The notes below the pieces were generated by a model. The model saw only the letters and a program-made list of their open reading frames with translations, was not told where the DNA came from and searched no databases. From Gemmataceae bacterium (GTDB lineage: Bacteria > Planctomycetota > Planctomycetia > Gemmatales > Gemmataceae): 58,923 nucleotides of DNA. A program made the translations under genes and the position numbers. Position 1 is the stretch's first letter, and each line of letters starts with the position of its first letter. Positions 2,238-37,762 of this stretch are shown in pieces. The stretch is taken from the NCBI GenBank assembly GCA_035296965.1, contig DATGZX010000367.1, positions 1-58,923 on the forward strand. The letters are read 5' to 3'.

Positions 2238-2282
2238 CCCTGCAGAACCTCCTGTGCTTGCAAACTTCCCATCGTTCGGTCG

Positions 2283-7185: not shown

Positions 7186-8526
<1,341 letters not shown>

Positions 8527-18678: not shown

Positions 18679-19680
18679 CTACACGGCTACCTGCTCTGCC
18701 GTCGTTTTGAGGATATTCGCGACGACGGCATCGGGAGGCACGCCATCGGCCTGGCCTTCGAAGTTCAGGATCAGCCGATGGCGTAGGGCCATGGGAGCGA
18801 CCGCACGGATGTCATCGCGGGCCACGTGATACCGGCCGTCGAGAATGGCCCGCAGCTTGGCCGCCAGGATGATCGCCTGGGCGCCGCGCGGGCTGCTGCC
18901 ATAGCGCACGAATTGCTTGGCCATGGGCGCCGTCAACTCGTGTTCGGGATGCGTGGCCATCACGACGGAAATAGCGTAGCGCCGGACCTCGGGTGCTACC
19001 GGAATTTGCCGCACTAACCGCGAGAGGGCCAGAATCCGCTCGCCATCGAAGACTGGTTCGGCCTTGGGGTTGGCGGCTTCGGTGGTGCGATCGAGGATAG
19101 TCTCCAGATCTTCGATCCGAGGAAACTGCACAAGAAGTTTGAAGAAGAAGCGGTCGAGCTGAGCCTCCGGCAGCGGGTAGGTGCCTTCCATCTCCAGCGG
19201 GTTCTGCGTGGCCAGCACGAAAAACGGTTCCGGCAGCCGATGGGTCTGCCCTGCGATCGTGACGTTGTGTTCCTGCATCGCTTCCAGCAATGCGGATTGC
19301 GTCTTGGGAGTGGCGCGGTTGATTTCGTCGGCCAGAACGATATTGGCGAAGACCGGGCCTTTCTGAAACTCGAAGCGCCGTCCGCCGTCCGCCGCTTGCA
19401 TGACCACATTGGTGCCGATCAAATCGGCCGGCATCAGATCCGGCGTGAACTGAATGCGGGCAAACTTGAGGTGCAATGCGTCGGCAATGGTGCGCACGAG
19501 CAGCGTTTTGCCAAGGCCGGGGACTCCTTCGAGCAGTACGTGGCCGCCGGCAATCAGCGCGGACAAAGCGCCCTCGACGATTTCATCCTGACCGACGATC
19601 ACCTTGGCGATTTCCTGGCGCAGCCGCGTGAAATCCGCCCGGAATTGTTCGAGTTCTTGTTTGATGGCTTCCGCGCTCAT
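18679..19680 (-). CDS. moxR: MoxR-family AAA+ ATPase
   Basis: Walker A GHVLLEGVPGLGKT, the MoxR signature (IQFTPDLMPADLIG) and Walker B (VLADEINRA). Length is 333 aa. Confidence 0.9.
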   Translation of the reverse strand: MSAEAIKQELEQFRADFTRLRQEIAKVIVGQDEIVEGALSALIAGGHVLLEGVPGLGKTLLVRTIADALHLKFARIQFTPDLMPADLIGTNVVMQAADGGRRFEFQKGPVFANIVLADEINRATPKTQSALLEAMQEHNVTIAGQTHRLPEPFFVLATQNPLEMEGTYPLPEAQLDRFFFKLLVQFPRIEDLETILDRTTEAANPKAEPVFDGERILALSRLVRQIPVAPEVRRYAISVVMATHPEHELTAPMAKQFVRYGSSPRGAQAIILAAKLRAILDGRYHVARDDIRAVAPMALRHRLILNFEGQADGVPPDAVVANILKTTAEQVAV

Positions 19681-19786
19681 AAGAGCAACGCTCCTTCATC
19701 TATGAGAGGAAGGTCTAAGGCAATCTGATGAGTCAGTTGCTTCACACTAAGGCCTGGCGTAATCTAAATGACCGTGTGCAAATAGG

Positions 19787-19843
19787 CTGATACTAGCCCG
19801 ACGCGTTAGCGAGGTCCTCGCTGACCCTTCGGGCTAGTGTCAG
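19787..19843. promoter_or_regulatory. Nested dyad symmetry in the divergent promoter region between moxR and the giant gene
   Basis: ctgatactagcccga ... tcgggctagtgtcag has 15-bp arms with one mismatch. It encloses a second palindrome, agcgagg-tc-cctcgct. Confidence 0.3.
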
Positions 19844-19950
19844 CGGAATCCTGCACGGTGATGTAGTTGACGTTATCGTCCGGCCCAGCGGAAGTCAAAC
19901 CGGTGCCGGCGGAATCTTTGCGTGCAGGCCTACAAAACGAGGGCCCTCCC

Positions 19951-22900
19951 ATGCGGCACGGACGGTTCGAGTGGTATCTCCTCTCCTTTTTCCTCCTTTT
20001 CGGAGGGAGTTGGTCTGCTGCGCAATCACCCCGACCGCCAGTCCAGACGCCCGCGCGGACCGAGGAGGCCGACGACAAGAACAAGGCGGACGCCGAGGAA
20101 GAAAAGGAACGCGCCATCGCGGAACGCTTTCGGCGCGTGCTGGAAAGCAATCCGCGCCGCGGCACAGCCTTCGACCGTCTCTACGGCTATCACGTCGAAC
20201 GAGGCACACTCGATCATCTGGTGGGCGAATACACCGCCCGCACCAAGAAGGACGCCAAGGACGGAATCGCCTGGATGATCGTCGGCCTGCTCGAAAGCCA
20301 GCGCGGCCGCGATGCCGCCGCCGTCTCCGCCTTCAAGCAAGCCGAAGCCGATCTGACCGACAGCGCCATTCCCTCGTACTATCTGGGCCAATCGTTGATC
20401 CTTGTCGGCCAGCCGGAAGCGGCGGCGGAGGCCTTCGAGAGGGCCATCACGCGCAAACCCAACCGCAACGATCTGCTCGACGCCTTTCAGGCATTGGGAC
20501 GCGTCTATCAACGCTCCCAGCGGACCGAAAAAGCGCTCGAGGTGTGGGCCCGGCTGGAAAAGCTCTACCCCGATGATGCGCGCGTGCAGGAGCAGATCGC
20601 CACGACGTTGGTCGAAGAAGGACAGTTCGAGCAAGCGCTGCCCCGGCTCACCAAGCTCGCCGATCAGGCGGATGACAAGTACCGGCAAACGTCGCTACGC
20701 ATGGACGCGGCTGATTTGAAGGTAAAGCTCAAGAAGACGCCCGCGGCGCTGACGGACTTCGAGAAGCTTTTGAGTGAGTTGAATCCAGATAGCTGGCTGT
20801 ACCGCGATGTCCGCCGGCGCATCGAGGAAATCTTCCTGCGCAATGACGACCTTGCCGGGCTGGCCAAGTACTACGAGAAATGGCTTGAAAAGAACAAGAC
20901 CGACGTGGACGCCATCAGCCGGCTTGCCAAGACGCTGGCCTCGCAAGGACGTGCGCCCGAGGCGCGCGACTGGCTCAGCAAGGGTGTCGCCGTCGCGCCC
21001 AACAGCCGGGCCCTGCGCCAGGCTCTCATCGATCAGTACGTGTTCGAGCAAAACTTCACGGCCGCGGCCCAGCAATACGAGGCCATGGACAAGGCGGATC
21101 CTAACAATCCCGATACCCTGCGCGAGTGGGGCAAACTTATCATGCGCGACTCCGCCAGGCCCGAGGCGGAACGCCGGACCGCAGCCAGCGCCATCTGGCG
21201 GCGCCTGCTGGAGAAAAAGCCCAACGACCCGGTTGTCGCTTCCCAAACGGCGGATTTGCTGCGCACAGCCGGCGCCGTGGACGACGCCGTCGCGCTCTAC
21301 AAGAAAGCGATCGCGGTTGCGCCCAACGCTGCCCAGTATCGCGAGTACCTGGGCGAGTACTACCACAGCTTGAAGCGTAGTGAAGAAGCACTGGCTACCT
21401 GGCGGCCGATCGCCGAGGGCCCGAACCGCACATCCAAGAACCTGGCCCGGCTTGCCGAAGTCTTCGCCGGCTTCGGCTATCGCAGGGAAGCCGCCGCCGC
21501 CATGGCAGATGCAATCAGCCTGGAAAAGGACGACTTCGGCATGCTCATGACGTATGCCGAGCTGCTGCACCAGGAGGGCCAACATAACGAAGCCTTGAAG
21601 CAAATCGAGACCGCCAGCAAGCTGGCCAGCAATGTTGAGGAAACAGAGCAAATCCTCAGCGCGCAGATAAAGATCTGGCAGGCGACGGAAACCTTAGGCG
21701 CGCAGATCGATCAACTGCAGGCGGAACTCGACGCTAACCAGGAAGCGACCGCCGAGCGCTGGCTGCGCCTGGCCCGCTGTTACGAGGCCAATCGGCAAAT
21801 CGACAAAGCCAGCGAAGCGATCAGCAAAGCGCAGGCCAAGGATGCCAAGTCGGTGGCCGCGCTCATCGCCGCGGCGCGCATCTACGAATCGGTCGGCAAC
21901 CTTTTGGCCGCCGCGGAAACCAACCGCAAGCTGGCCGCCGGGGATCGCCGTTATCGGACGGAATACCTGACCACTGTCACCAAGCTGGAACAGCGGCTCG
22001 GCCGGCGCGAGCATGCCCTGCAAGCCGCTCGCGATCTCCTGGCGGCGTCGCCCGGCAATCCGGACGTCTACAAGTTCTTCGCCGATCTTTGCTTCCAGTT
22101 CGGGGACCAGGAGGAAGGACTGGAAGCCTTGCGCCGCTCGGTTCGCGCCAACCCGTCCGAACCCCAGGGGCTCATCACTCTGGCCAATGCGCTGGGCGAA
22201 CGCATGCGGCAGGGAGAGGCCGTCGAGCTGCTCTGGCGCGCCCTGGAAAAGACCCCGGAACTGGACGCCAAGCTCGGCGTCGTCGAGCGAATTACGCAGC
22301 TTTACCTGGAGAACAACCAGTTCGATCGGCTGCTGGAGCGGCTGGAGCGCGAACGTCGCGAGGCGGAGAAGGCGCGCGAGGCCACGCTTTGCATCGCTCA
22401 GGCATATACGACTGCCGGCGACCTCGGGGCCGCTCGGCAGCAGCTCGAACACATGCTCACCGAAAATACGCGCGACACGCACTTGCTCGCCCAGCTCTCG
22501 TCGCTTTGCGAGCAAGAGGGCGACTTGCCGGCCGCGGTCAAGTATCAGCGTCAGCTCAATGCCGCCGCGCCCAGCAACTATGACCATCAACTGCGGCTGG
22601 CACAGTTACTGACTCGGACCGGCGAGCCGGACGAGGCCGCGGACATCTGGGTGCGGCTCGTCAGCAAGGATACGGAAACGCACCGCAACCTTTCGGCAAT
22701 CGACAGCCTGCTCACGGCCGGTAAATTGGAAGGAGCGCTCGCCATCATTTCCCGGCTGCTGCTGCAAAAGCCAGGCAACTGGGAACTGCTTTACCGCGAA
22801 GGCGCCGCCCTGGCAGCTCTGGAAAGAAGAGAGGAGGCCAGCGCGCGCTTCCGCGCGATCATGGCCCTGAAGCTGCCCGACGACGAGCTCGGCGAGATCA

Positions 22901-25900
22901 CCAAGCACCAGATCGAACTATCCAAGAAAAAGACGACAAAACCGACGCAGCAACAAGGGCAGCTGCCTCCGAGCCGGCCGGGCGTCATGGCCAACCCTTT
23001 CGACGAATGGGCCAATCCCCCTCTCACGCGACGCGTCGGCAAGATTTGGAACGTCCGCCGGGCCACTGGGATGGATCCGCAGTACTACAACTACAATCAA
23101 GGCGGCGGCACCCAACCCATTTACGTCCCTGCGGACTATGGCGAGGCGCGCATGGCCTGCCTGGGTTGGCTCTATGAAGAAGCGCGGGCGAAGGGAACGG
23201 CCGATGGATTCATCAAGCAATTGCGCACGGCCAAGGAGAAACCTGGCGCGAATCGAGAATCGCTATGGGAGTGGTATTACTTCAATTTGCTCCGGTACGA
23301 AGGCAAGCAGGTATTCCCGGCGGCCCTGGTACTTGCCAAGAGAAACGACCCTGCCGGGATGTTGGCTCTGGTCAACGCGGTGGGGTCGCGGACCAATACG
23401 AACTTGGTGCGCCGTCGATCGCCCCGTGGCGGCAAAGATTTGACGCCCGCCCTGCCGTCCGACCAACTCGAGCAGCTGCTCTCGGCTTATCGCGGCTTGA
23501 CACAGCTCAAGCCTGAATGGGCGCCCAGCGCCGTGCAAACCGTGATCACCGAGTTGAAACGGGCTGGCCGAGAGAGCGACGAGAAGGCCCTCTACCAGCA
23601 GATGCTCAAGGAAGCAAACGTAATCACCAAGGTGCAAGCCGCCTTGAGCGTGGCTGCCGAGCGCGACGACCTCGAGGCCTCCTTCGAGTTATTAAACAGA
23701 CTCGAAAAGCTCCAACCTCCCGCAAAGACGACCGCCATGCTGGCGCAACTGCCGACGCGCCAGGCAGCGTGGCCATTGACAACGCTCATGGGCAAACGCG
23801 CGGATGAAAAGCATTTCGACGATGTACGCAAAGTACTCGATTTCTACCTCTCCGTCACGCGCCGGCAAAACCTGACAGCGGTACGGTCAGCTTCGACCAG
23901 CCGCCGGCCGCAAAACGGCGGCTTCTCGGTCAGCACGTACTCGCGCAATCAAAGCTACAACAACACGCAGATTGCTTACCCCTCCCCGAACGAGTACTAC
24001 GACGCCGGGACCCTGTCATTTCTGTACAACGGATACGATTTGCACAAAAGGGCGGACCTTGCTTCCGATCTCTTCGCGCATTTGGAGAAACGCCGCGACG
24101 CGGCGCGTGGCGCGGAGCGCATCTACTTGCACCTCGCGCTCGGCTATTGTCATTGGTGGGCCGGCGAGAAGGATGAGGCGATTGCCGAGCTGAGCCAGGC
24201 CGTACAAGCCGCGCCCAATGACCAGATTCTAATCCTGGAGGTGGCTGCTCTGCACGAGTTGAACAACGATTTTCAAGCGGCCATGGCCTTGCTCGACTCC
24301 TTCACCCCCATGGAAATGCAGGTCATGCAGCAGCGCGAGGAGGCTGCCCTGCGCTTGGCCGAGCGGACCGGCGGCGTGGAGCGAGCCCGGCAAGCTGCAG
24401 ACCGTCTCTTCGGCCTACGGCTCGACTCCGACAAGCAACTGGAGCTGGCAGGCAATATGCACCGGCTCGGCATGCATCAGTTGGCCGAGATGGTTTTGGG
24501 TCGGGCCCAAAGGCAGGCGGGCAGCAAAACGGGCACGTTGGTCCGGCTCATGACGCAATATCAGAGCCAGAACCAGATCGACCTGGCCGTGCAGATCGCT
24601 CGCCAAATCCTGCGCAAAGGGCCCTCCATCCAGACCAACTTCCGCGGCGGGTACAACGAAAACGAAAATGCACGCCAGCAAGCCATCAGCGTTCTGGCAC
24701 GCTCCGGACAACTCAAGGAAATCATCGAACGAGCGGAAGCTCAGCTCAAGGCGTCGCCCAGGTCTTTGCAGATTTATCAAGCCCTGGTCGGCTACTACCA
24801 GGCCGCTTCCGAGAAGAAGAAGCTGAAAGACGCCTTGCTCAAGATGGCCGACCTGAAGCCAAAAGACGGTAAGCTTCGCATGCAGGCCGCCCAGCAACTT
24901 CAGCAGATGGGCGAGCGCGACGCGGCCATGCAGCAATACAAGCTGGCCATCAAGCTCGAACCGGTGCTCTTCAGCAACAGCTACTGGCAAATCCAAAACC
25001 TCTTCACCCAGGCCAACAAGTTCGAAGAACTCGTTCAGTTGTTCGATGAAATCGACCTCCACAAGGTGGGCAATTACTGGGCGGTAACCGAGCCCATCGC
25101 CACGCTCTTGCAGCAGGACAAAGGCAGAGAACTGGGCCTGAAGCTGTTCCGCAAGGCCTGGGAGGCGTTCCCGCAGTATCGCAGTTACATCCTCGGCAAC
25201 CTTTACAATGAGGAGATTTGGCGGCTGCCGGAGATCTACACGTTCGCCAAGGAAGCCGTCATCCCACGCCAAGATTCGGAAGCGGATCCCTGGCAAGCGG
25301 TCACCGAAATCTCCAACTACGGGCAAGAGGGCCGCGTGGAGAGCATTGTCACGCGGATGCTGTCCATTGCCCGCAAGCAGCAGCGGCTGCCTGAACTGCG
25401 TGGCCAAGTGCAGGCTGCGCTCGCCAAGCGGCCGGACTGGATCGGCGGCAAGGCTCTGCTTGCCGTTATCGATGTTCAGCTGGGCAACAAGGAACAGGCC
25501 AAGAAAGCCTGGCGGGAGGTGTTCGATGATCCCAAGGCGGACGTTCCCGTCTTGGCTCGATTCATCCTCAGTCAGGAGCTCGAGTTCTACTCCGGGGTCG
25601 AAGATCTGGCGATCAAGACCCTCGAAGACGGCATCGATGAGCTGATTCGTGATCCAAATTACCAATACAGTTACTCCCCTGCGCATCGGCTCGTCTGGTG
25701 GTACGAACAGATGGGACGCAAGGAAGACGCGAAGAAGCTCACGCTGCGGTTTTGCAGTGACGAGGTAACCAACCCTGGCTATGGCGGCGGCTGGTGGGAG
25801 TATCAACGTGCGCAAACTCGCGTGAGCGTCGCTCAGGAATTGGTCCGCTCCGGAGACTGTGTCGAGGCGGTTCGGGTTTACAATAGCTTGCTCGCCGATC

Positions 25901-28900
25901 CCGATCTGCTCGACGCGGCGAACCAAGTCAGTGGTGGCGAGCGCTTCGATGTGCAGGTCGAACAAGGGCTAAAAGCTGCCGTCAAAGCATTGAAACCCAG
26001 CGCCTTGCCGGCGGCGGTCAGCGCTCTCTTGACACCGCTCGAGACCAAATCCACGGATAAGCCCGCGCTTGACATGGTGCTGATTGTCGACTCTCGCGAC
26101 ATCAGCAAGGCAACGCTGAATAGCTTGCTTGCCGCGGCCATCAAATCGACGGCCAAAGTTCCCGAGGTTCGACACAGCGCCCTGGCCAAGCTTGCCGAGC
26201 TGACCAAGAAGCATCCCACCGATCATGGAGTCCAGGTTGCGAACGCGCTGGTGGCAATGGCGGACGGTAAACCCAAAGAGATTCAGGACGCGATCGAGCG
26301 GTTGGTCAAGCTAATGGATGCCACGCAGTTGGAGAAATTGCCGGCCAACGGAAAGCTCAACGCGCGCCATCGGGCCGCGGCCCAGCTGCAAGTGCCGCTT
26401 TGGCTCGCCGCCCGGGAATGCCTCGACAAGGATCGGCCGCAGCTCTGGCCCGCAGGCGAGAAACTGGCCGCACGTGCTGCCGAGGCCGCCAAACGTCAAC
26501 AAGATGCACTGGTCACGGTCGCTGTTTTCCATGAATGGGGCCAACTGGAGTTGGACAAGGGCGATAAAGCGAAAGCCCAAGCCATCTGGGCGGAGCTGAT
26601 GGAATGGACTCTGCCCAAGCAGCCGGCAGCCAAGGCGGCGGCAGGACCGAAGCCAGCGACATCGGTCCCAGCCACTCCGGCGGCACCTGCACTTGTGCCC
26701 TCTCCCAAGTCGCCCCTGGCATTACGCGGCGTGGCCGCGGCCCTTCTTGTCCTCGTGCAAGCCCCCGTGCCGCCTGCGGGAGCGCCTAACCCGCAACCTG
26801 CACGCACACCGTCACGCTCCAGCGCTCCGGCCCCCACGGAAGACGAATTCAAGCGATCCTATGAGATCGCTCAGTTGGCCATCGACAAGCAAATGCCGGA
26901 CCTGTCATTGCGTACGATGCAGGCGGCGGTACGTGGCGGTCCGCCTATCGCGGTGACGGAGAATCGGAATTTTGGCGGCATGTATCGATCGCGCATGATT
27001 AACGGGACGCAATACCTTGTCAGCGGAGGCAATTCGCGACGTGTCACGGTTGACCAGGCTCTACTGGCTCTGATCCCCAAATGGCGTGCCCAGAGTGTGG
27101 CCGCCGCGAGAATCTATGAGCTGCTCGTGGCCGCTGTCTTGCCGGACGCGCGCCCGGCGGAGGTCTTTCTTTATCCTCCTTTACAAAACTTCGGCCAGGT
27201 CTATACGCTCGTCGGAGGAATGTGGACGCCCGCACAGGGAATCATCGACGACGTGGAAGATCGCGGGCTCGGCCAAGCGTTGATCCAGGCAGCTCTCGAG
27301 GCCGGCAAGACGGGCGACCTTCGCCAGCGGCTCGAAACGCGCGCCAAGCAGCCGCTGGGTGAGCTGCCCGCCAAAATCATGCTGGCCATGCTCGGCATGC
27401 GGGCCAAGGACCAGGCTCTCGCCACGTTGACCTTTCGCTCCCTGGGTGATCGGCTCAAGAAGGATTCATCGCAAACCACCAACGCCACCATCGCCGCCGT
27501 TCTCGTTGTCGCTTTGAACGATCCCAAGTATGCCGAGTTGGTCGTTCCGTTCATCGACAAGACAGCACAGAACTACCTGACCGCCGGCAATGCGCAAGCT
27601 GCGGCCGAAGTTCGTTTCCGGTTGGCGGAATACTATGTGCACCGCCAAGACGAAGCGGCCGCCAGAGCCCAGTTCAAGTTGGTGGAAAGCTCCGACAAAA
27701 AGGCCGGGGCAGGCAACTTTGACATGCATCAGACCGTGGCTAGAGAATTCCTGAAGCTCGGCTGGGTGGAAGATGCTCTGCGCGAGTTTGGCTATCAAGC
27801 TGACAATCCGAACGATTCGGCCACCAATACCAACAATGAGAATATGGCAGGTCAGCCGCGCATGGAACCAATGCTGCCGGGTAGTTTTGAACGCCTGGCG
27901 GTTCTGCTGCTGCAGATGCCAGCCGCCAAGCGCTATGAGGTGCTCAAGACGTGGACCCTACCGACCAAGAGCCGCAAGTCGATCCGCTACTACGTGGGCG
28001 CGTCGCCAAAAGAGATTCCCCCGGAGATCTTTGGCAAGCCTCCTTCGTTCCCTGCACATCGCAGCTTGAGCACCATGCTGATTCTGGCAGATGCAGCCAA
28101 GGAGGCTGGGAAAGGTGAGGAGTTGATTGCCGAAGTAGAGCGCCTGGCCAATGACAAGGTGGAAAACGCCGAGACGTTCAAGGTACTCGTCTATCTTGCC
28201 CAGGGAAAAGGGAAGGACATTGAGCCGGCGGTGAAAGCTTTCGCCGAATCGGCACACAAGCGCCTCACGGAAAAACGCGAACAGCCGCTGGGCTTCAACC
28301 GGTACTACTATAACGGCGGCGATAATCAGCAGCCCGCGCCACCATACCCGAGTGAGTTTATTTTCGCAGCGCTATGCCACAACGATCCCGCCCTGGCTGC
28401 ATCGGGTGAAGACGTACTGTCGGCAATGCTCGGCAGCCGCTGGGCGGGCAACGATCCCGACCTGAACGCCCGGGTCCAGCACACGCGCGATCAATGGGAT
28501 GCCAAGCGCGCGGGCGCTCCGGACGTGTTTGCCGGCGCCTTGCCGCCTCTCTGGCACGCCAGCACTCCCGATTCGAGCTGGATCGCTCACGACGGTTATC
28601 TCGCGCAAATGCCGGGAGATCAGGCTTCTTCCCTACTGGTCGATTATCCGTTCACTGGAACGTTTGAGTTTTCCGTCGACGTTAGTCCGATGGGCGGCGC
28701 CGCGGGATACGGCGGCATCACGTTCACGCCCTCTTCAATGCAGGTTGCCTCCACGGTGCCGGGTGATACGATCCAGCAGCAAATCCCGACCAATCAGCAA
28801 GGCGACTTTGCTCGTCTTACTGTCCAGGTCTCTCCGCAGAAGATTCGCTGCCTCGTCAACGGCGTGCTTTTCTACGAGGACATCAATCCGGCTCCGACAA

Positions 28901-31566
28901 GCCCCTGGCTGACCTTGGGAAGCGCGCCGGCCAATGGTTCTACATTCCAACGGTCAGTCTATCGGAACTTCCATTTGTCCGGCAAAGCTGAGGTTCCTGG
29001 TGAGGTCAAGCTTGCCGCGGGCGACTATCTCGAAGGCTGGCGGAGCCAGGTTTACAATTCGACCCTTCCCCAGCGGCTCATCGCGCGTCAAAAGGCAGAG
29101 GGCGGACCGGCCAACTACGATCAATGGGGCAGGCGCTTTTACAACAGCAACGAGGATCAGCCGGAGGCGGGCGATCCTGTTTACGACTGGTTGTCCAAGG
29201 ACGGCGAGATCCTCGGCCGGAAGCTCGATTGGCCGGGCGAAAAGCCTTCTCCCAGTTGCCTGGCCTATTCTCGCCCTTTACGGCCGGGGGAGACGTTGCG
29301 CTATGAGTTTTACTATGAGCCTGGCAAGACGCATGTTCACCCCAGCCTGGGCCGAGTCGCCTTTATTCTCGAACCGGAAGGCCTCAAGCTGCACTGGATG
29401 ACCCAAGGGGAAGATTGGACCGGGCTGAAATCCGACAACGCGATCCCCAATCGGAGCAGCCCAACCGCGGACAAGCTGCCGCTCAAGCCAGGCGCGTGGA
29501 ACAAGGTTGCCCTGGCCGTCACCAAAGACGGCGCGCGTATCGAGCTGAACGGTGTCGCCGTGTTTGACTCGAAGCTAGACCCGCACGTCGAACGCGTTTT
29601 CGGCCTGTTTCACTATCGCGACCGGGCCGCTGCTCGCGTGCGCAACGTTCTGCTGACGGGGAACTGGCCCAAGACCCTGCAGCCGTCCCGCGAAGTTTCC
29701 TTTGCTACCAAGCCTGCCGCGCCGGCAGAAGTCAAAGTGCTTCGCTCCCTCATCGGTGAAAAACAGTTCGCCTCCGAGTCGGCCGACCTGGTCGAGTGCG
29801 CCAACAAACTGCCCGCCGGCGAACGGTATGCACTGCTGGCCGACTGGGTGTTGCCCAGCGAGCGTCGGCCGACCTATCAGCTTGCCGGCGTGATCAAGCC
29901 GCTCGACGTTCTCGGCGTGGTCGACCAACCGCAACAACCGCCCGGCCGGCGCATTTTCTTGGGCGGACACATGATCCTTCCCTGTCTCGAAATGATTGCG
30001 GCAGCCAGCGAAGCGGGCAAGCTGGACGATTTGTGCGCGCGGCTTGGGAAAGCAGCTTTCGGCTCTGAAGACGAGCTGGATAGGCGCGCACGCCTTGCTC
30101 TGCGGGCAGCCGCGCTCGCCACGAAGGGCGACGACGGCGCCGCTGCCGCTGACCTCGACGACTTGCTTCCCCATGTGACCCGCATGAAGGTTGACGCCCT
30201 GGGGCGTGAGCGTTGGCCCGTCCTGGTGGCGGCATGGGGCTCCCTGGAGCGTCCCGCGCTGCTGGCCAAAGTTGCGCCTCTTGTGGAAGCTATGAACAAG
30301 AACCTGGAGGAAGCCATTATCCAGGAGAAAGTCTTCGACGAACGCGAATGGTGGATGCTCGTGTTCCGCGATGTGCTGGCCAACCTGGAACTCAAACGCT
30401 TGCCGGACGGCAGTCGTTGGACGACGGCGGATAGTCGATTTGTGCATTGGGCGCCGGCACCTGGCGCCGACATAAGCGTTCGATCTTCCGGAGGGGGTGT
30501 TGCTCGCTGGGTGCTTCGCGATGGCGTGCTGGTGCATTTGCCCGGCTGCGATCAGGACTGCCTGATCTTGGACGCACCTCTGCGGGGCAATTTCGAAGTC
30601 ACCTGCGACCTGACGACGCAGCGTTGGCATGATATACACGTGCGTTACGGTTCACGTCAGTTTGACCTGCAGCCGGATCGGAAACACTACAAACTGATCG
30701 CCAGCATGCGTGGCGACGCGCGCGAAAGCTCCATCATCCCGCCACTGCCCGCCGCCAAGGGAGACGCCTATCAGTTTCGCATTGCAGTGAAGGACGGCTG
30801 GTTCCGAGCCTACGTGGATGGCAGGGAGCTGGCAGCGGAAAGGATTGGGTCCAACCCGGAGCCGTGGCTCATGCTGCATGGTTCGTCACTCAATGTGGGC
30901 GAGATGCGCAATTTCAAGATCACCGGGAAGCCGTCGGTTCCCGACCATATCGATTTGCTCGCCGACGCCGAGCTGGGGATGTGGTTGCCGAGCCAGGGCC
31001 AGCCGTGGACCAAGCGTGGCGAGGAAATGTACAGTCAAGGCCAGAGACCCGAGCCGCCCGAAGAAGGAAAGCCCGTTCCGCCACGCGGCTTTCCCGAGGC
31101 CGCGGCTTTTTACCAACGCCCCATGCTGGAAGACGGCGCCATCGAGTATGAGTTCTATTATGAGCCGGAAAAGGCGCACGTACACCCCGCTCTCGATCGC
31201 TTGACCTTCCTCCTGGAGCCCGAAGGCGTCAAGCTTCATTGGCTCACGGATGGAGGGCTCGAGAAGAGCAAGACGCCAATCGATAACACCGTCGATGAGC
31301 CATCGTCTCGGCGCGGCCCAGCACGGCCGCCGCTCAAACCAAAAGCCTGGAACACGGTTCGTATGGTGGTTGCGGGAGATGTCGTCAAAGTGTCGTTGAA
31401 CGGTGTGGATATTTACGAGCGCCCCATCGAGTCGACCAATCAACGCCTTTTCGGCTTGTTCCACTACACGGATCGCACCGAGGCGCGCGTGCGCAACATG
31501 ATCTACAAGGGCGCCTGGCCGAAGAAAATCCCGACCGAAGCTGAGCTGTTCGAACTAAAGAAGTAA
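19951..31566 (+). CDS. Giant (~3870 aa) secreted or membrane-anchored TPR-repeat protein with an internally duplicated C-terminal beta-sandwich module
   Basis: One uninterrupted ORF. It has a signal peptide or anchor (MRHGRFEWYLLSFFLLFGGSWSAAQS). The first ~1000 aa contain dozens of TPR-like helical repeats. There is a Pro/Ala-rich linker around 26.6-26.85 kb. Two copies of a ~380-aa module lie at about 28.56-29.70 kb and 30.42-31.56 kb. Each has a ConA/LamG-like segment followed by the conserved blocks YEFYYEPxKxHVHPxLxRxxFxLEPEGxKLHWxT and RxFGLFHYxDRxxARVRN. Confidence 0.8.
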   Translation: MRHGRFEWYLLSFFLLFGGSWSAAQSPRPPVQTPARTEEADDKNKADAEEEKERAIAERFRRVLESNPRRGTAFDRLYGYHVERGTLDHLVGEYTARTKKDAKDGIAWMIVGLLESQRGRDAAAVSAFKQAEADLTDSAIPSYYLGQSLILVGQPEAAAEAFERAITRKPNRNDLLDAFQALGRVYQRSQRTEKALEVWARLEKLYPDDARVQEQIATTLVEEGQFEQALPRLTKLADQADDKYRQTSLRMDAADLKVKLKKTPAALTDFEKLLSELNPDSWLYRDVRRRIEEIFLRNDDLAGLAKYYEKWLEKNKTDVDAISRLAKTLASQGRAPEARDWLSKGVAVAPNSRALRQALIDQYVFEQNFTAAAQQYEAMDKADPNNPDTLREWGKLIMRDSARPEAERRTAASAIWRRLLEKKPNDPVVASQTADLLRTAGAVDDAVALYKKAIAVAPNAAQYREYLGEYYHSLKRSEEALATWRPIAEGPNRTSKNLARLAEVFAGFGYRREAAAAMADAISLEKDDFGMLMTYAELLHQEGQHNEALKQIETASKLASNVEETEQILSAQIKIWQATETLGAQIDQLQAELDANQEATAERWLRLARCYEANRQIDKASEAISKAQAKDAKSVAALIAAARIYESVGNLLAAAETNRKLAAGDRRYRTEYLTTVTKLEQRLGRREHALQAARDLLAASPGNPDVYKFFADLCFQFGDQEEGLEALRRSVRANPSEPQGLITLANALGERMRQGEAVELLWRALEKTPELDAKLGVVERITQLYLENNQFDRLLERLERERREAEKAREATLCIAQAYTTAGDLGAARQQLEHMLTENTRDTHLLAQLSSLCEQEGDLPAAVKYQRQLNAAAPSNYDHQLRLAQLLTRTGEPDEAADIWVRLVSKDTETHRNLSAIDSLLTAGKLEGALAIISRLLLQKPGNWELLYREGAALAALERREEASARFRAIMALKLPDDELGEITKHQIELSKKKTTKPTQQQGQLPPSRPGVMANPFDEWANPPLTRRVGKIWNVRRATGMDPQYYNYNQGGGTQPIYVPADYGEARMACLGWLYEEARAKGTADGFIKQLRTAKEKPGANRESLWEWYYFNLLRYEGKQVFPAALVLAKRNDPAGMLALVNAVGSRTNTNLVRRRSPRGGKDLTPALPSDQLEQLLSAYRGLTQLKPEWAPSAVQTVITELKRAGRESDEKALYQQMLKEANVITKVQAALSVAAERDDLEASFELLNRLEKLQPPAKTTAMLAQLPTRQAAWPLTTLMGKRADEKHFDDVRKVLDFYLSVTRRQNLTAVRSASTSRRPQNGGFSVSTYSRNQSYNNTQIAYPSPNEYYDAGTLSFLYNGYDLHKRADLASDLFAHLEKRRDAARGAERIYLHLALGYCHWWAGEKDEAIAELSQAVQAAPNDQILILEVAALHELNNDFQAAMALLDSFTPMEMQVMQQREEAALRLAERTGGVERARQAADRLFGLRLDSDKQLELAGNMHRLGMHQLAEMVLGRAQRQAGSKTGTLVRLMTQYQSQNQIDLAVQIARQILRKGPSIQTNFRGGYNENENARQQAISVLARSGQLKEIIERAEAQLKASPRSLQIYQALVGYYQAASEKKKLKDALLKMADLKPKDGKLRMQAAQQLQQMGERDAAMQQYKLAIKLEPVLFSNSYWQIQNLFTQANKFEELVQLFDEIDLHKVGNYWAVTEPIATLLQQDKGRELGLKLFRKAWEAFPQYRSYILGNLYNEEIWRLPEIYTFAKEAVIPRQDSEADPWQAVTEISNYGQEGRVESIVTRMLSIARKQQRLPELRGQVQAALAKRPDWIGGKALLAVIDVQLGNKEQAKKAWREVFDDPKADVPVLARFILSQELEFYSGVEDLAIKTLEDGIDELIRDPNYQYSYSPAHRLVWWYEQMGRKEDAKKLTLRFCSDEVTNPGYGGGWWEYQRAQTRVSVAQELVRSGDCVEAVRVYNSLLADPDLLDAANQVSGGERFDVQVEQGLKAAVKALKPSALPAAVSALLTPLETKSTDKPALDMVLIVDSRDISKATLNSLLAAAIKSTAKVPEVRHSALAKLAELTKKHPTDHGVQVANALVAMADGKPKEIQDAIERLVKLMDATQLEKLPANGKLNARHRAAAQLQVPLWLAARECLDKDRPQLWPAGEKLAARAAEAAKRQQDALVTVAVFHEWGQLELDKGDKAKAQAIWAELMEWTLPKQPAAKAAAGPKPATSVPATPAAPALVPSPKSPLALRGVAAALLVLVQAPVPPAGAPNPQPARTPSRSSAPAPTEDEFKRSYEIAQLAIDKQMPDLSLRTMQAAVRGGPPIAVTENRNFGGMYRSRMINGTQYLVSGGNSRRVTVDQALLALIPKWRAQSVAAARIYELLVAAVLPDARPAEVFLYPPLQNFGQVYTLVGGMWTPAQGIIDDVEDRGLGQALIQAALEAGKTGDLRQRLETRAKQPLGELPAKIMLAMLGMRAKDQALATLTFRSLGDRLKKDSSQTTNATIAAVLVVALNDPKYAELVVPFIDKTAQNYLTAGNAQAAAEVRFRLAEYYVHRQDEAAARAQFKLVESSDKKAGAGNFDMHQTVAREFLKLGWVEDALREFGYQADNPNDSATNTNNENMAGQPRMEPMLPGSFERLAVLLLQMPAAKRYEVLKTWTLPTKSRKSIRYYVGASPKEIPPEIFGKPPSFPAHRSLSTMLILADAAKEAGKGEELIAEVERLANDKVENAETFKVLVYLAQGKGKDIEPAVKAFAESAHKRLTEKREQPLGFNRYYYNGGDNQQPAPPYPSEFIFAALCHNDPALAASGEDVLSAMLGSRWAGNDPDLNARVQHTRDQWDAKRAGAPDVFAGALPPLWHASTPDSSWIAHDGYLAQMPGDQASSLLVDYPFTGTFEFSVDVSPMGGAAGYGGITFTPSSMQVASTVPGDTIQQQIPTNQQGDFARLTVQVSPQKIRCLVNGVLFYEDINPAPTSPWLTLGSAPANGSTFQRSVYRNFHLSGKAEVPGEVKLAAGDYLEGWRSQVYNSTLPQRLIARQKAEGGPANYDQWGRRFYNSNEDQPEAGDPVYDWLSKDGEILGRKLDWPGEKPSPSCLAYSRPLRPGETLRYEFYYEPGKTHVHPSLGRVAFILEPEGLKLHWMTQGEDWTGLKSDNAIPNRSSPTADKLPLKPGAWNKVALAVTKDGARIELNGVAVFDSKLDPHVERVFGLFHYRDRAAARVRNVLLTGNWPKTLQPSREVSFATKPAAPAEVKVLRSLIGEKQFASESADLVECANKLPAGERYALLADWVLPSERRPTYQLAGVIKPLDVLGVVDQPQQPPGRRIFLGGHMILPCLEMIAAASEAGKLDDLCARLGKAAFGSEDELDRRARLALRAAALATKGDDGAAAADLDDLLPHVTRMKVDALGRERWPVLVAAWGSLERPALLAKVAPLVEAMNKNLEEAIIQEKVFDEREWWMLVFRDVLANLELKRLPDGSRWTTADSRFVHWAPAPGADISVRSSGGGVARWVLRDGVLVHLPGCDQDCLILDAPLRGNFEVTCDLTTQRWHDIHVRYGSRQFDLQPDRKHYKLIASMRGDARESSIIPPLPAAKGDAYQFRIAVKDGWFRAYVDGRELAAERIGSNPEPWLMLHGSSLNVGEMRNFKITGKPSVPDHIDLLADAELGMWLPSQGQPWTKRGEEMYSQGQRPEPPEEGKPVPPRGFPEAAAFYQRPMLEDGAIEYEFYYEPEKAHVHPALDRLTFLLEPEGVKLHWLTDGGLEKSKTPIDNTVDEPSSRRGPARPPLKPKAWNTVRMVVAGDVVKVSLNGVDIYERPIESTNQRLFGLFHYTDRTEARVRNMIYKGAWPKKIPTEAELFELKK

Positions 31567-31580
31567 CAGGAGACTCACCC

Positions 31581-34442
31581 GTGGTCGGCGCTCGCTGGTA
31601 TTACCCATTGACAGCTTGCCTTGCCTTGGCCACCGTCCTTATTCCCTCGGCCATCGGCCAAGTTGGCAAGCCCGTCCTAGCCAAGCCCGCAGTATTTCCC
31701 GAGCCGATCCAGTTCGAACCCAAGCCGCAAACCGCTCGTCAAGACGACGAGGCGCTGGCGGTCGCTTATTCTCCGGACGGCAATTTGCTCGCCTCGGCCG
31801 GCGCGGACGGTGTAACGCGTCTCTGGGAGCCATCGACCGCCAAACTCCTGGCCAAGTTACCCGGCCATCGCGATGCGGTTGCCGCGCTTGCTTTCTCGCG
31901 GGACGGGCGCATGCTGGCCACGGCTTCCTACGACAAAACGATCAAGGTCTGGGACGTCGCCGCGCGCAAGGAGACCTGCACAATCACAGGGCATAGTAAC
32001 GCTGTCCTGGCCGTGGCATTTCTGTCTGGCGGCGCGCGGCTGGTTTCGGGAGGGGCAGATCGCCTTGTTAAGCTCTGGGATGTGCCGGCCAAGAAGGAGC
32101 TTGCCTCGTATGGGGAACACAAGGGGGCAGTTCGTGGTATCGCCGTCTCGCCGGACGGCAAAACCATCGCTTCGGCCGGGAGTGACCGCCGGGTGATCCT
32201 CTGGAACGTGGACGGTTGGACCTCTGCCGGAACTCTCAGCAGCCATAAGGGGCCGGTTCGTGCGATCGCTTTTTCGCCGGACGGCCGCTTGCTCGCCAGC
32301 GCGGCTGAGGACAAGACCATCATCATCTGGGACGTTGCAACTCGCAAGGAAAAGCACAGCATGGAAGGGCATACCGAAGCCGTCACTGCGCTCGCGTTTT
32401 CACCGCGCGGACAGCTGCTGGCAAGCGCGAGTGTCGACAAGACCCTGCGGCTCTGGGAGACGGCGACGGGCGGTGAGTTGGCCAATCTGGAAGAGGGTCA
32501 CACCGAGGCTATCCAAGGGGTTGCCTTTGCCCCCTCCGGCCGGCAAATCGCCACCGCCTCGGCGGACAAGACCATCGGCCTATGGTCCTCCGCCTTGCCG
32601 CGCGTCTTCGCTGCGCGGACCTACCAAAACCGGACCGGACCGACCGGCGTTACTGCTATTTCCCCCGACGGCAAGCGCCTGGCCGTTCTTGGAGACAAAC
32701 ACGCGATTCTCGTGCTCGACGCCCAAAGCGGCCAGACCCTGGCGGTCTTGCAAGGCCACCGCAGTGCGATCGTGGACCTGACGTTCAGCCCCGACGGAGC
32801 CTGGCTCGTGAGCAGCGGCCGCGACCGGGTTGGCATGCTCTGGGATGTGGCCGGCGGCCGGCGGCTCGCCCTGCTCGACGGGCATCGCGGCACGGTGCGC
32901 GCCGCGGCGTTCGCCCCGAACGGCAAGCTGCTTGCCACGGGCGGGGCAGACAAGCGCATCCTGATTTACGATCTACCGCCTACAGGGTCGAGCGTGACCG
33001 AGCTGCGCGAGCGCACCGTGCTCGAAGGTCATCGGGGCGCGGTCTCGTGTTTGGCCTTTTCCCACGATAGCCGCCTGCTTGCCAGCGGTTCGGATTTGGT
33101 GACCCGCAAAGCGCCGGCCGAGGTCAAGTTGTGGGAGCTGGCCGCCGGCAAGCAGATCGCGTCTTGGATCGATCATACCGGCGACGTCGCGGCACTGGCT
33201 TTTCACCCAACTCGCCCAGTGCTGGTGTCGGGCGGGGCGGACCCCGGCTTCCGTGTCTGGGATCTCGACGCACGCAAGCCAATTCTTTTTCGCCCAACAC
33301 AATCCGCAGTGATCTCGCTTGCCTTCACCGGCGGCGGCACAGAGTTACTTACCGGATCGGTGGGACGCACTCTGCTCGCCTGGGACACGGAGAGCTGGCG
33401 CGAACAACTTCGCTTCGTCGGCCACACGGGGGCAGTCACCAAGCTCTGCGTTCTTGCGGGGACACAAGGAGCACCCATACTCTCAGCTTCCGCCGACAGG
33501 TCGCTGCGTTCGTGGTCCATGACTGCGGCGGCCGTTCGCGGCACCCGCTTCGCGGGCCATGAAAGCTGGGTAACGGCGCTCGTGCTCACGCCCGACGGCA
33601 AGAAACTCATCTCCGGCAGCTGGGATGGCACAGTCCGCATATGGGACGTCGAGACCGCCAAGGCGGATACCGTGCTCGAGTCACACCAGTCGAAGATCTA
33701 CGCCGTCGCTGTTAGCCGGAACGGCAAGCGCGCCGCATCCGCCGGCGGGAACGGCGAAGTCTTCCTCTGGGATCTGGAGGCAAACGCCGAGGCCGCCCGA
33801 CTGGAAGGTCACGATGAAGAATCGGAAGTCAACGGCATCGCCTTCACGCCGGACGGTAAGCGGGTAGTGACCGCCGCCTCCGACGGCGATATTCGCATTT
33901 GGGATGCAGCCACCGGCAAAGAACTGGGCAAGATCAAAGGTCCCAAGGAGGGCATCCTCGCCCTGGCCCTGAGCCCAGACGGGCGCCAAGCCGTCATCTC
34001 CGGAGGCGCCGGTTTCGCATGCACGCTCTACGACCTGGAGACCAAGAAGGAAGTCCGCCGTTTTCTGGGGCACACTGCCGCCGTGCATGCCATTGCCTTT
34101 GCCCCCGACGGCAAACGCATTCTCACAGGCTCGGCGGACCGTACGCTGCGATTCTGGGACATAGCCAGCGGGAATGAACTACGCAAACTTGACGCCCACG
34201 CGGGCTACGTTCGCGGCGTTTGCTTCACCGCCGACGGAGCCGTGGTCGCTTCGGTAGGCTACGACCATGTCAATCGACTCTGGGATTCCAGTGACGGCCG
34301 GCTTCTTATTTCTTTCGAAGTGCACAATCGACCTGCGCTGTCGGTCGCGCTCTCAGCCGACGGCAAGACCGTATATTCCGGTGGTGCCGACGAGTATATC
34401 TTTCGCTGGCGGCAACCGGCGAGCGAAGAAGCGGCGAAATGA
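31581..34442 (+). CDS. WD40-repeat protein with about 20 repeats and an N-terminal signal peptide or anchor
   Basis: GTG start 15 nt after the giant gene's stop, with caggaga 8 nt upstream. There are numerous WD40 units of the form GH...V..LAFSPDG..LASAS.DKT...WD. Confidence 0.85.
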   Translation: MVGARWYYPLTACLALATVLIPSAIGQVGKPVLAKPAVFPEPIQFEPKPQTARQDDEALAVAYSPDGNLLASAGADGVTRLWEPSTAKLLAKLPGHRDAVAALAFSRDGRMLATASYDKTIKVWDVAARKETCTITGHSNAVLAVAFLSGGARLVSGGADRLVKLWDVPAKKELASYGEHKGAVRGIAVSPDGKTIASAGSDRRVILWNVDGWTSAGTLSSHKGPVRAIAFSPDGRLLASAAEDKTIIIWDVATRKEKHSMEGHTEAVTALAFSPRGQLLASASVDKTLRLWETATGGELANLEEGHTEAIQGVAFAPSGRQIATASADKTIGLWSSALPRVFAARTYQNRTGPTGVTAISPDGKRLAVLGDKHAILVLDAQSGQTLAVLQGHRSAIVDLTFSPDGAWLVSSGRDRVGMLWDVAGGRRLALLDGHRGTVRAAAFAPNGKLLATGGADKRILIYDLPPTGSSVTELRERTVLEGHRGAVSCLAFSHDSRLLASGSDLVTRKAPAEVKLWELAAGKQIASWIDHTGDVAALAFHPTRPVLVSGGADPGFRVWDLDARKPILFRPTQSAVISLAFTGGGTELLTGSVGRTLLAWDTESWREQLRFVGHTGAVTKLCVLAGTQGAPILSASADRSLRSWSMTAAAVRGTRFAGHESWVTALVLTPDGKKLISGSWDGTVRIWDVETAKADTVLESHQSKIYAVAVSRNGKRAASAGGNGEVFLWDLEANAEAARLEGHDEESEVNGIAFTPDGKRVVTAASDGDIRIWDAATGKELGKIKGPKEGILALALSPDGRQAVISGGAGFACTLYDLETKKEVRRFLGHTAAVHAIAFAPDGKRILTGSADRTLRFWDIASGNELRKLDAHAGYVRGVCFTADGAVVASVGYDHVNRLWDSSDGRLLISFEVHNRPALSVALSADGKTVYSGGADEYIFRWRQPASEEAAK

Positions 34443-34615
34443 CCGGAAGACGCTTGGGTGCGATGCGTTCGTGGCCTTGGCACTCGGCAGTCTCCGGCAG
34501 TAGCTCGGGACCGAAAGCATGGCACCCAACATGGATTTGCTGTATGATAGTAAATCATGTGCAGTTCCAGCTTAGTCAACGCTCTTACCGACCTGCCATT
34601 GAACTAGGTAGATAA

Positions 34616-35032
34616 ATGCAACTTGAATTTGCGATCATGTGCGATGCCGCTGAGGTTAATAGCAGCGGCCTTATCTATATATTGAAGGGCGGGTATGACA
34701 TTACAGTCGCATCAGAGTTTCCAGTAATCATACATCAAGTCATTTTAGTTGTCAGGATTTTGTGCAATCCTGAAGAAGTCAACCATCAACATATTCTAAT
34801 TTCGCAAATCATTGATCCACATGGCCGCATACTGCCTTCGAAGATAACAGTTCCCTTCACGACTCCGGTTTATCCAGGCCATCCCGACCGCCCAAACAAA
34901 TACACGCTAAAGTTGGAGCATCGGTCGGTCTCGTTCGATGAGCCAGGCGATTACACTTTTCGTTTTCTAGTTGATGGCCTTCAGCTCGGACAAGCCGGAC
35001 TTGAAGTCAAACGAAAAGAAGGAAAGGAATAA
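34616..35032 (+). CDS. Hypothetical protein, first gene of the low-GC island
   Basis: 138-aa ORF in a conspicuously AT-richer stretch. Its stop overlaps the next ORF's ATG by 1 nt. No family recognised. Confidence 0.45.
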   Translation: MQLEFAIMCDAAEVNSSGLIYILKGGYDITVASEFPVIIHQVILVVRILCNPEEVNHQHILISQIIDPHGRILPSKITVPFTTPVYPGHPDRPNKYTLKLEHRSVSFDEPGDYTFRFLVDGLQLGQAGLEVKRKEGKE

Positions 35033-35445
35033 TGATGGCATTAGCAGCTTTGACTAAGAGCTCCGGCAGAGGTTCCGCATCTGCTTCTGAATACGAGGTT
35101 TCGTGCGTTGGCGGTGGGAGTTCCAATTACAGTGAAGAATGTGAAACCGATAATGTCACTGCCCTTAAGTTCGTCGAGCTCTCGGAAACATGGAAGAAGG
35201 ATACGGAGTACCTGTCCAAGCTTAGCAAGAAAGTGATGCATCCGGCTTACCAAAGGATCATTGGCATGGGGCGGGATGCAATCCCGTTCATCCTGAATGA
35301 TTTGAAAGAAGACCCGGCTGATTGGTTCTGGGCGTTAACGGCGATCACTGGAGAAAACCCTGTTGCCGAGGCGAGCGCCGGCAAGGTGGAAGAAATGGCG
35401 AAAGCATGGCTGCTATGGGGCCGTGAAAGAGGATATGGAGTGTGA
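35032..35445 (+). CDS. Hypothetical protein, second gene of the low-GC island
   Basis: 137-aa ORF (MMALAALTKSS...). It overlaps the next gene's GTG start (GTGA). No family recognised. Confidence 0.45.
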   Translation: MMALAALTKSSGRGSASASEYEVSCVGGGSSNYSEECETDNVTALKFVELSETWKKDTEYLSKLSKKVMHPAYQRIIGMGRDAIPFILNDLKEDPADWFWALTAITGENPVAEASAGKVEEMAKAWLLWGRERGYGV

Positions 35446-35927: not shown

Positions 35928-36177
35928 CGCAAGGATACGCCCAGTGAAGCTGCGAAGGTCGAAGCCAAGGGCCAAGGACATTGCGGCGAGCGCGTGAACA
36001 GACGGGATCCGTTCCCCTTCTGTAGACGCGCTCCCCTTCGGGTCGCGGTTAAACGATTTATCGGGCACCGCAAGAACGGGAATGCGCTCTTGCTTGGCCG
36101 CATTTATGCGGCTACCCTGGGGTGTGCAGGATTGCCGAAGGAATCGCTCTCGGCGTCCGTCCGTTCCCTCTGAGGGC

Positions 36178-37740: not shown

Positions 37741-37762
37741 GGGGTTTTCAGGAGGCTTTCCC

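Follow-up and report, generated by a model that had tools for sequence, protein, structure and literature searches.

Gene clusters of the Bat/BatI type join a MoxR ATPase, a DUF58 protein, BatA/BatB proteins with von Willebrand factor A (vWA) domains and small tetratricopeptide repeat (TPR) proteins, the last being thought to build a membrane-associated complex (PMC5700661, PMC3557215). In the BatA homologue BB0173 the vWA domain faces the periplasm (PMC5700661), and mutants in a Rhizobium cluster show envelope defects, the function of such clusters being still undefined (PMC5700661, PMC3557215). A neighbourhood of this kind is present in a stretch of 58,923 nucleotides from a Gemmataceae bacterium (GenBank assembly GCA_035296965.1, contig DATGZX010000367.1, positions 1 to 58,923), hereafter the window, where it adjoins the gene of a giant protein of 3,871 residues (19951–31566, stop codon included, + strand), predicted to be exported and composed of a TPR-type alpha-solenoid followed by DUF1583-type heads. 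Membership of this protein in the uncharacterised DUF1583 family, with generic RefSeq annotation, was known already; new here are its full anatomy, an orthologue group spanning three families, and a constant linkage to a Bat-type MoxR/vWA operon and to a sixth gene. We propose, with a probability of about 0.45, that the locus is a conserved planctomycetal envelope system, in which a Bat-type MoxR/vWA chaperone set is combined with a giant periplasmic scaffold that replaces the classical Bat TPR components.

The giant gene is confirmed as real and conserved, and is neither a chance frame nor an artefact. The + strand has one uninterrupted open frame from 19867 to 31566, and its earliest ATG, at 19951, gives the 3,871-residue product, in agreement with the original prediction (made by a model from the letters of the window), which had described a single open reading frame (ORF) of about 11.6 kb with a signal-peptide start. 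The N-terminus (residues 1 to about 25, 19951–20025) reads MRHGRFEWYLLSFFLLFGGSWSAAQ, a positive n-region or short basic stretch followed by a hydrophobic core, in the shape of a Sec signal peptide. Equivalent hydrophobic N-termini are found in all six orthologues compared, and this conserved shape suggests export. The protein ends in ...KGAWPKKIPTEAELFELKK, an ordinary terminus. The last 1,073 codons have a dN/dS of 0.18 against the metagenome relative L001, which is 88–93% identical at the protein level. Unbroken giant ORFs of 3,865–4,153 codons, with colinear products of 3,850–4,126 residues, occur in six loci from short-read metagenome-assembled genomes (MAGs), belonging to Gemmataceae (L006, L009), Frigoriglobus (L008), Urbifossiella (L010), Isosphaeraceae (L013) and Pirellulales (L015), and the gene is also intact in CP042425.1, the complete genome of Limnoglobus roseus, and on a 9.8-Mb contig of Singulisphaera sp. 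PoT. Only contigs that look long-read-assembled, as judged from record names (contig_197514_np1212; MFD bins), have it broken up into separate ORFs, and this points to indel errors. Because of the intact, colinear orthologues in short-read MAGs and complete genomes, an assembly fusion or a frameshift across the ORF, a concern raised with the prediction, was rejected.

Three families, Gemmataceae, Isosphaeraceae and Pirellulaceae, share the giant form as a conserved group of orthologues. Seven giant proteins align colinearly from end to end with 42–67% identity, the N-terminal TPR third (residues 100–900) being the most conserved part, at 70–78% across families. Homologues were searched with the 609-residue module described below and with a 600-residue middle segment. 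An exhaustive search with the module profile returned 3,156 representatives of clusters defined at 50% identity, and 38 of the best 150 representatives are 3,445–4,517 residues long. Named orthologues include QEL19722.1 of L. roseus (3,860 residues, complete genome CP042425.1), WP_422924867.1 of Singulisphaera sp. PoT (3,816), WP_254508225.1 of Anatilimnocola floriformis (3,741) and PQO40523.1 of Bremerella cremea/Blastopirellula marina (4,043), whose annotation goes no further than 'DUF1583 domain-containing protein' or 'tetratricopeptide repeat protein'. Loci were also collected by a scan with a six-sequence alignment (A2) and two peptide patterns, which returned 10 loci and is not a census. 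At one locus of a distant relative (L004, 3568–22739) homology extends over a far greater length: some 16.6 kb of DNA there match only residues 37–2910, with the TPR blocks present twice. This frameshifted region, in an apparent long-read contig and with 32% identity in the middle part, could represent an even larger version of the protein or an internal duplication.

In all 15 informative loci, the window counted, the MoxR-DUF58-BatA-vWA set adjoins the giant (tblastn mapping and called-gene tables); these loci cover Gemmataceae, Isosphaeraceae and Pirellulales. Informative loci are those reaching past the relevant end (the window, L002, L003/L012 on one contig, L004, L005, L006, L008–L011, L013, L015 and L018–L020). 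The MoxR orthologues beside the giant are 73–89% identical in the tblastn-mapped loci, and Pfam calls MoxR beside it in L018–L020. The operon, initially treated as a secondary neighbour, is thus a universally conserved partner in these loci. Its placement varies. In Isosphaeraceae L013 it lies downstream of the giant and is co-directional with it, instead of upstream and divergent, and the sixth gene, which in the window and Limnoglobus closes the operon at the end away from the giant, comes right after the giant in Pirellulales. Rearrangement with adjacency kept argues for function over inherited gene order. Genes outside the conserved set are entirely different among L018, L019 and L020.

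In the window the operon is encoded on the - strand, divergently from the giant, and the original identification of a MoxR/DUF58/vWA operon upstream was borne out by Pfam for MoxR, DUF58, BatA-vWA and vWA. MoxR (18679–19680) is an AAA_3 ATPase (AAA_3 218 bits, AAA_lid_2 65 bits) with the canonical Walker A motif GVPGLGKT. The vWA-like DUF58 protein (17731–18612; PF01882, 130.4 bits) has a DASRS motif resembling the metal-ion-dependent adhesion site (MIDAS). It is followed by a BatA-type membrane vWA protein (15821–17725; PF07584 41.3 bits, VWA_2 61.7 bits) with a DNSAS MIDAS motif and by a second membrane vWA protein (13244–15802) with GATase1_like and FixH-like regions in Pfam and two DxSxS motifs; all three assignments agree with synteny. 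Both large vWA proteins have two N-terminal and one C-terminal hydrophobic or transmembrane (TM) helices, together with DxSxS motifs. The Leptospira BatA and BatB models of NCBIfam score far under their cut-offs. A small TPR gene of the BatB/BatC/BatE type was not found by Pfam inside the operon, and the sole TPR protein there is the adjoining giant.

The sixth conserved component, recognised by homology and neighbourhood, is a membrane, coiled-coil and Cys-rich protein (11688–13217, - strand, start approximate) without any family match in Pfam, NCBIfam or PADLOC. Members of this family of about 500 residues have N-terminal TM helices, a long Glu/Lys-rich charged region resembling a coiled coil, a Cys cluster of the CxCxxxC type and a conserved C-terminal motif, IPLGHRQ...YF..IRP. 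A homologue of about 495 residues (33% identity, E 6e-66) is encoded directly 3' of the giant in Pirellulales L018 (22237–23724) and L020 (22424–23917), and another member is found in Limnoglobus (L019, 1425–2966). In the window, the gene of a PD40 propeller protein adjoins this component.

The divergent intergenic region between MoxR and the giant (19681–19950) contains an inverted repeat that is conserved in six Gemmataceae relatives (alignment A5: L002, L006, L008, L009, L010 and L019), for example GATAACTTgtctgAAGTTATC. The shared repeat, of the type GATAACTT-N5-AAGTTATC, precedes two further conserved sequences, GTTGTCAAAC and ATTGAAACGA. At this site the window has an imperfect palindrome with 57-nucleotide arms (19758–19872), which replaces or expands the repeat and whose inner hairpin CTAGCCCGA-N27-TCGGGCTAG (19793–19837) is perfect and unique within the window. 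Possibly a hairpin element has disrupted or enlarged an operator here.

The giant protein is composed of the signal peptide, an alpha-solenoid of about 2,200 residues, a linker, a helical domain (H0) and two modules, each with a helical domain and two concanavalin A (ConA)-like sandwiches. The solenoid body (residues ~45–2225, 20083–26625) is supported by TPR families in Pfam, an AlphaFold2 model and Foldseek, with a low-confidence break near residues 1001–1120. TPR families score above gathering thresholds (TPR_19 96.4 bits, TPR_14 93.9, TPR_2 60.7 and TPR_16 53.0), with matches at residues ~84–1000 and scattered ones up to about residue 1860. In the model of residues 1001–2200 helical hairpins follow each other in an uninterrupted series; confidence is low for residues 1001–1120, and from about residue 1120 block pLDDT (predicted local distance difference test) values are mostly ~65–94, with two short dips. 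The TPR assignment to the first third was therefore correct for residues ~84–1000, but a helical solenoid is also modelled for residues ~1120–2200. Foldseek gives Ski3, IFT139/TTC21B, Ctr9, OGT and Naa15 as best matches to this model; because TM-scores against these TPR scaffolds are only ~0.15 (identity 10–13%), the likeness to Ski3, IFT139 and Ctr9 holds at the level of repeat class only.

The solenoid is followed by a Pro/Ala-rich linker (residues ~2226–2300, 26626–26850), variable in length and sequence among orthologues. A candidate TM helix at residues 2255–2273 was rejected, and the segment is regarded as a linker and not a membrane anchor, because its hydrophobic stretch is not conserved. 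H0 (residues ~2301–2640, 26851–27870) is a degenerate copy of the helical domain of the modules. The module profile matches it at residues 2443–2582 (E 5e-7), covering the helical part alone as a weaker third copy, and finds it at the same position in all orthologues.

Module 1 (residues 2641–3256, 27871–29718) carries DUF1581 at 28846–29064 and DUF1583_N at 29254–29673, and module 2 (residues 3257–3871, 29719–31563) carries them at 30778–30984 and 31105–31524. A profile built from module homologues places full modules at residues 2639–3256 and 3253–3871, module 1 scoring 494 bits in hmmsearch. The DUF1583 membership guessed for the duplicated C-terminal part was right, as each copy has DUF1581 (PF07619, 82.1 bits, cut-off 27; residues 2966–3038 and 3610–3678) preceding DUF1583_N (PF20407, 284.5 bits, cut-off 22.9; residues 3102–3241 and 3719–3858), and both sequence blocks quoted with the guess are found in the translation. 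The DUF1583 C domain (PF07622) has no Pfam match in the window giant. The repeat unit had been given as ~380 residues and its copies as near-identical; it is actually ~610 residues long, comprising the helical domain and two beta-sandwiches (self-BLAST, profile and model), and the copies are only 26–48% identical in windowed self-BLAST, where residues 2655–3249 align with 3286–3866.

The AlphaFold2 model of module 2, made with a 24-sequence alignment, is confident (pLDDT 88, predicted TM-score 0.87), with a helical domain at residues 1–221 and beta-sandwiches at 238–400 and 416–592 of the module. With this model Foldseek returns tandem jelly-roll pairs, including BT3469, laminin LG4-5, galectin-8 and neurexin, in accordance with the ConA-like folds predicted originally. 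As judged from the model, the closest solved folds of the sandwiches are DUF1080 proteins, and a sequence-profile search of PDB with the module gave marginal DUF1080 matches only. The corresponding family PF06439 scores 34.3 bits on the whole giant (cut-off 26.8), no single stretch passing alone; isolated segments reach 17.2 and 21.6 bits.

The DUF1583/DUF1581 family was originally defined in Rhodopirellula baltica. Pfam scans of five non-giant members (1,418–2,219 residues) show two DUF1581 and two DUF1583_N stretches in all five, and four of the five have the DUF1583 C domain, which is also kept in the Pirellulales giant orthologues L015, L018 and L020. Duplication is therefore a family trait, and the tandem pair is not special to the giant. 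Among non-giant double-module proteins, those of L017 (10309–15394) and P0073 are fused to PD40/Tricorn-like propellers, and P0068 has Laminin_G_3 and HEAT repeats. As some members are fused to PD40 or HEAT, solenoid and propeller partnerships recur in the family. In L016 (1–16758) the neighbours of the non-giant double-module gene are an ECF sigma factor gene and two PSCyt/PSD1 + DUF1501 pairs; one of these pairs includes an EF-hand protein, as in the trio located after the WD40 gene of the window. In L015 an extra stand-alone DUF1583 paralogue with a signal peptide (1833–5435; 302 bits with the module profile) lies between MoxR and the giant, and a Ser/Thr kinase-TPR gene comes after the giant.

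In the window the giant is followed by a gene for a WD40 protein of 953 residues (31581–34442, + strand) with a hydrophobic N-terminus resembling a signal peptide. WD40 (PF00400) gives 576 bits in 16 stretches, and parsing of the repeats by inspection gives 21 repeats of ~42 residues, one more than the 20 counted before, consistent with three 7-bladed propellers. At the junction, TAA-c-AGGAG-actcaccc-GTG, the tight spacing and the Shine-Dalgarno-like AGGAG before the GTG start are as predicted, but the spacer is 14 and not 15 nucleotides. The gene has a dN/dS of 0.12 against L001. An orthologue lies 3' of the giant in 11 Gemmataceae-like loci, window included, the pair being parted by a small inserted gene in two of the 11 (Uma2 in L002, a 143-residue ORF in L019), and is absent at the Gemmataceae MAG L007 and at L013, L015, L018 and L020. 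The WD40 neighbour is thus restricted to Gemmataceae-like loci and missing in the Isosphaeraceae and Pirellulales orthologues. The emphasis placed earlier on coupling between the two proteins was too strong, although the WD40 gene does tightly follow the giant where the pair exists.

In the system proposed here, two vWA proteins in the inner membrane would display their MIDAS domains to the periplasm and hold or load the giant scaffold there, with cytoplasmic MoxR and DUF58 providing ATP-driven assembly or remodelling. The ligand of the lectin-like heads might be a glycosylated protein or a glycan, either imported or belonging to the envelope, and in Gemmataceae the exported triple WD40 propeller could dock on the solenoid, as Ski8 does on Ski3. 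Display by vWA proteins, MoxR/DUF58 action, glycan binding and WD40 docking are all suggested by analogy with described systems, and from position and analogy the giant may be the equivalent of the Bat TPR proteins. A role of the locus in the envelope is plausible from the signal peptides of the giant and WD40 proteins and from the membrane-anchored vWA proteins, and purifying selection on the giant and WD40 genes lends support. We infer from this that the giant and the operon may act together as an assembly system.

Several observations weigh against this interpretation. In most lineages the giant is divergently transcribed and outside the operon. As MoxR and DUF58 are predicted cytoplasmic proteins and the giant an exported one, any coupling would have to act across the membrane. 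Only the fold suggests that the heads bind a ligand, PF06439 being sub-threshold on segments. BatD has no match in any neighbouring ORF scanned with Pfam, and the non-giant DUF1583 genes of L016 and L017 are not beside MoxR. The Bat operons are themselves without an established mechanism (PMC3557215). In the literature, no paper was found to mention DUF1581, the sole match to DUF1583 was unrelated, and no experiment on the family was found. TPR, WD40 and MoxR go unmentioned in the papers found on giant genes of planctomycetes, and the supplementary files examined for the Isosphaeraceae paper do not contain 'tetratricopeptide', 'TPR' or 'giant'.

Two other explanations also place the giant in the periplasm. 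It could be a device for glycan capture or processing, with heads that are lectins or enzymes of the 3-keto-glycoside type holding or cutting polysaccharide that has been taken up into the periplasm, at the end of a long solenoid arm; PSCyt2/PSD1, DUF1501 and EF-hand proteins would then be its partners, and the MoxR operon a maturation factor or unrelated. Its attraction is that the DUF1080 protein BT2157 hydrolyses 3-keto-trehalose (PMC8121099), and that the PSCyt2/PSD1-DUF1501-EF-hand trio, found after the Gemmataceae locus, also flanks the non-giant DUF1583 gene in L016. This trio is, however, not beside the giant in Pirellulales L018 and L020, barring an unpaired DUF1501 at the far edge of L018, nor within the sequenced part of Isosphaeraceae L013, and PSCyt2/PSD1 + DUF1501 pairs recur in the fetched loci, twice for example in L016. 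Because these families are many-copied in planctomycete genomes, the adjacency is likely due to chance. The neighbourhood also has no conserved glycoside hydrolase or transporter, and the PF06439 similarity falls below threshold on segments; we consider such a device unlikely. A slightly lower standing is given to the absence of any functional link, in which the giant is an independent periplasmic scaffold, its adjacency to MoxR and WD40 being inherited gene order. Divergent transcription in most loci and the lineage-restricted WD40 neighbour fit this well, and as the sampled lineages all belong to one class, some synteny could be historical. The adjacency nevertheless persists at 36–42% identity of the giant, through relocation of the operon in L013 and of the sixth gene, with wholly different cluster-flanking genes in L018, L019 and L020 and with a conserved palindrome in the relatives' shared intergenic region. 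Purely historical synteny is hard to reconcile with two rearrangements.

Two further explanations carry the least weight. As a cell-surface adhesin or an S-layer-like protein it would be exported past the outer membrane. Among giant genes of bacteria, annotation as a cell-surface protein is frequent, according to a passage of PMC5352709 that cites Reva and Tummler (2008), and this one has a signal peptide and lectin-like heads; but scans with Pfam, NCBIfam and PADLOC gave no secretion-system, autotransporter or sorting-signal family, the C-terminus is of the ordinary kind, the alpha-solenoid architecture is unlike that of beta-rich adhesins, and the strong conservation of the N-terminal third across families (70–78%) is unlike that of variable surface proteins, which makes a surface location very improbable. 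The presence of MoxR, vWA, TPR and beta-propeller proteins also recalls the MoxR-vWA-beta-propeller ternary systems of biological conflict (Kaur et al., 2020), reported in planctomycetes (PMC7159879), and bpMoxR (PF20030) scores 49.6 bits on the MoxR protein, above its cut-off of 27. AAA_3, at 218 bits, scores far higher; the Walker A motif GVPGLGKT is not the GxxxTAKS variant described as frequent in those systems; none of the three vWA-type proteins carries a propeller in Pfam; the giant N-terminus is the most conserved part and not a variable region; the orthologues are colinear and under purifying selection; and PADLOC gives no system-specific match. With no vWA-propeller fusion, a canonical P-loop, a conserved N-terminus and no such match, a defence system was rejected as highly improbable.

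An extension of the envelope-system proposal is that the six genes, joined in Gemmataceae by WD40, encode an ATP-dependent periplasmic mega-scaffold found throughout the Planctomycetia. This alpha-solenoid with lectin-like heads, assembled by MoxR on membrane-anchored vWA proteins, would organise a planctomycete-specific envelope feature. We regard this extension as improbable. Planctomycetes are unusual in their envelope and in the way they divide, and have many giant genes whose role is unknown; candidate features for such a scaffold would be the site of budding, the crateriform structures, or the enlarged periplasm and the membrane invaginations that go with it. If true, it would represent a bacterial coat-like system of solenoid plus propeller. 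The giant itself is not a lineage oddity: its full-length, colinear orthologues make up no fewer than 38 clusters at 50% identity and are present in cultured members of the Gemmataceae, Isosphaeraceae and Pirellulaceae. It is among the largest proteins made by these cells. Its linkage to MoxR/vWA genes would supply Bat-type MoxR systems with a concrete candidate client or partner, lacking since their discovery, and the locus gives a short list of deletion candidates in cultured, sequenced strains. Even if the link is merely historical, the anatomy is a clean annotation upgrade for 'DUF1583 domain-containing protein'.

Downstream of the WD40 gene, the window has PSCyt2/PSD1, DUF1501 and EF-hand genes (36082–40791, + strand; Pfam), a possible accessory set of weaker linkage, in an order repeated in Gemmataceae loci. 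They are separated from the WD40 stop by a 1.6-kb island of lower GC content (34443–36081; 0.53 vs ~0.61), which is absent from the corresponding junction in L006 and contains small overlapping ORFs on the + strand at 34616–35032 (DUF6941), 35032–35445 (no family) and 35442–35927 (DUF7689). A 399-residue ORF at 35247–36446 (- strand), which has no family match and overlaps better-supported + strand ORFs, was treated as spurious. In Limnoglobus L019 a BlaI/BlaR-WD40 pair is located between the WD40 and PSCyt2 genes. Junctions of the locus accept insertions, as seen from the window island, Uma2 in L002 and this pair in L019. Other window genes encode a second TPR protein of 838 residues (4160–6676), a GFO/IDH/MocA oxidoreductase with a weak sub-threshold match to a TAT signal (7186–8526), the PD40 propeller protein beside the sixth component (10360–11256) and a Ser/Thr kinase (42466–44457); such oxidoreductases are the enzyme class partnering DUF1080 in the 3-keto-glycoside pathway.

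Compared with described families and systems, the locus has partial likeness to several. It shares with the DUF1583 family the RefSeq name of its orthologues, 'DUF1583 domain-containing protein', and two modules that pass the Pfam thresholds, but the window giant is without PF07622 and adds a TPR solenoid of ~2,200 residues before the modules, and linkage to MoxR is seen only for the giant form and not in L016 or L017. The modelled heads share the ConA-like jelly-roll fold of DUF1080/3-keto-disaccharide hydrolases (PF06439; BT3469, 4jqt; BT2157), differing from them by identities of only 10–18% and by the family-specific helical domain that precedes the sandwiches. The middle 1,200 residues, modelled as a TPR-like superhelix, and the adjacent WD40 gene in Gemmataceae recall Ski3-Ski8, IFT139 of IFT-A and Ctr9, at the level of repeat class only, whereas the window proteins are bacterial and predicted to be exported. 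The MoxR-vWA-beta-propeller conflict systems use the same domain vocabulary (PMC7159879), but here TPR and propeller belong to separate proteins, both with export-type N-termini. With respect to the Bat/BatI clusters of Bacteroides, spirochaetes and Rhizobium, the TPR component of the window is a separate, divergently encoded protein of 3,871 residues with lectin-like heads and not a small BatB/C/E protein, BatD and SH3 domains were not found, and GATase1_like and FixH-like regions are present in the second vWA protein. What the locus has in common with them is a neighbourhood that groups an AAA_3 MoxR with DUF58, BatA + vWA, another membrane vWA protein and a TPR protein, together with a BatA-like vWA domain that would face the periplasm and the envelope role proposed for Bat systems (PMC5700661, PMC3557215).

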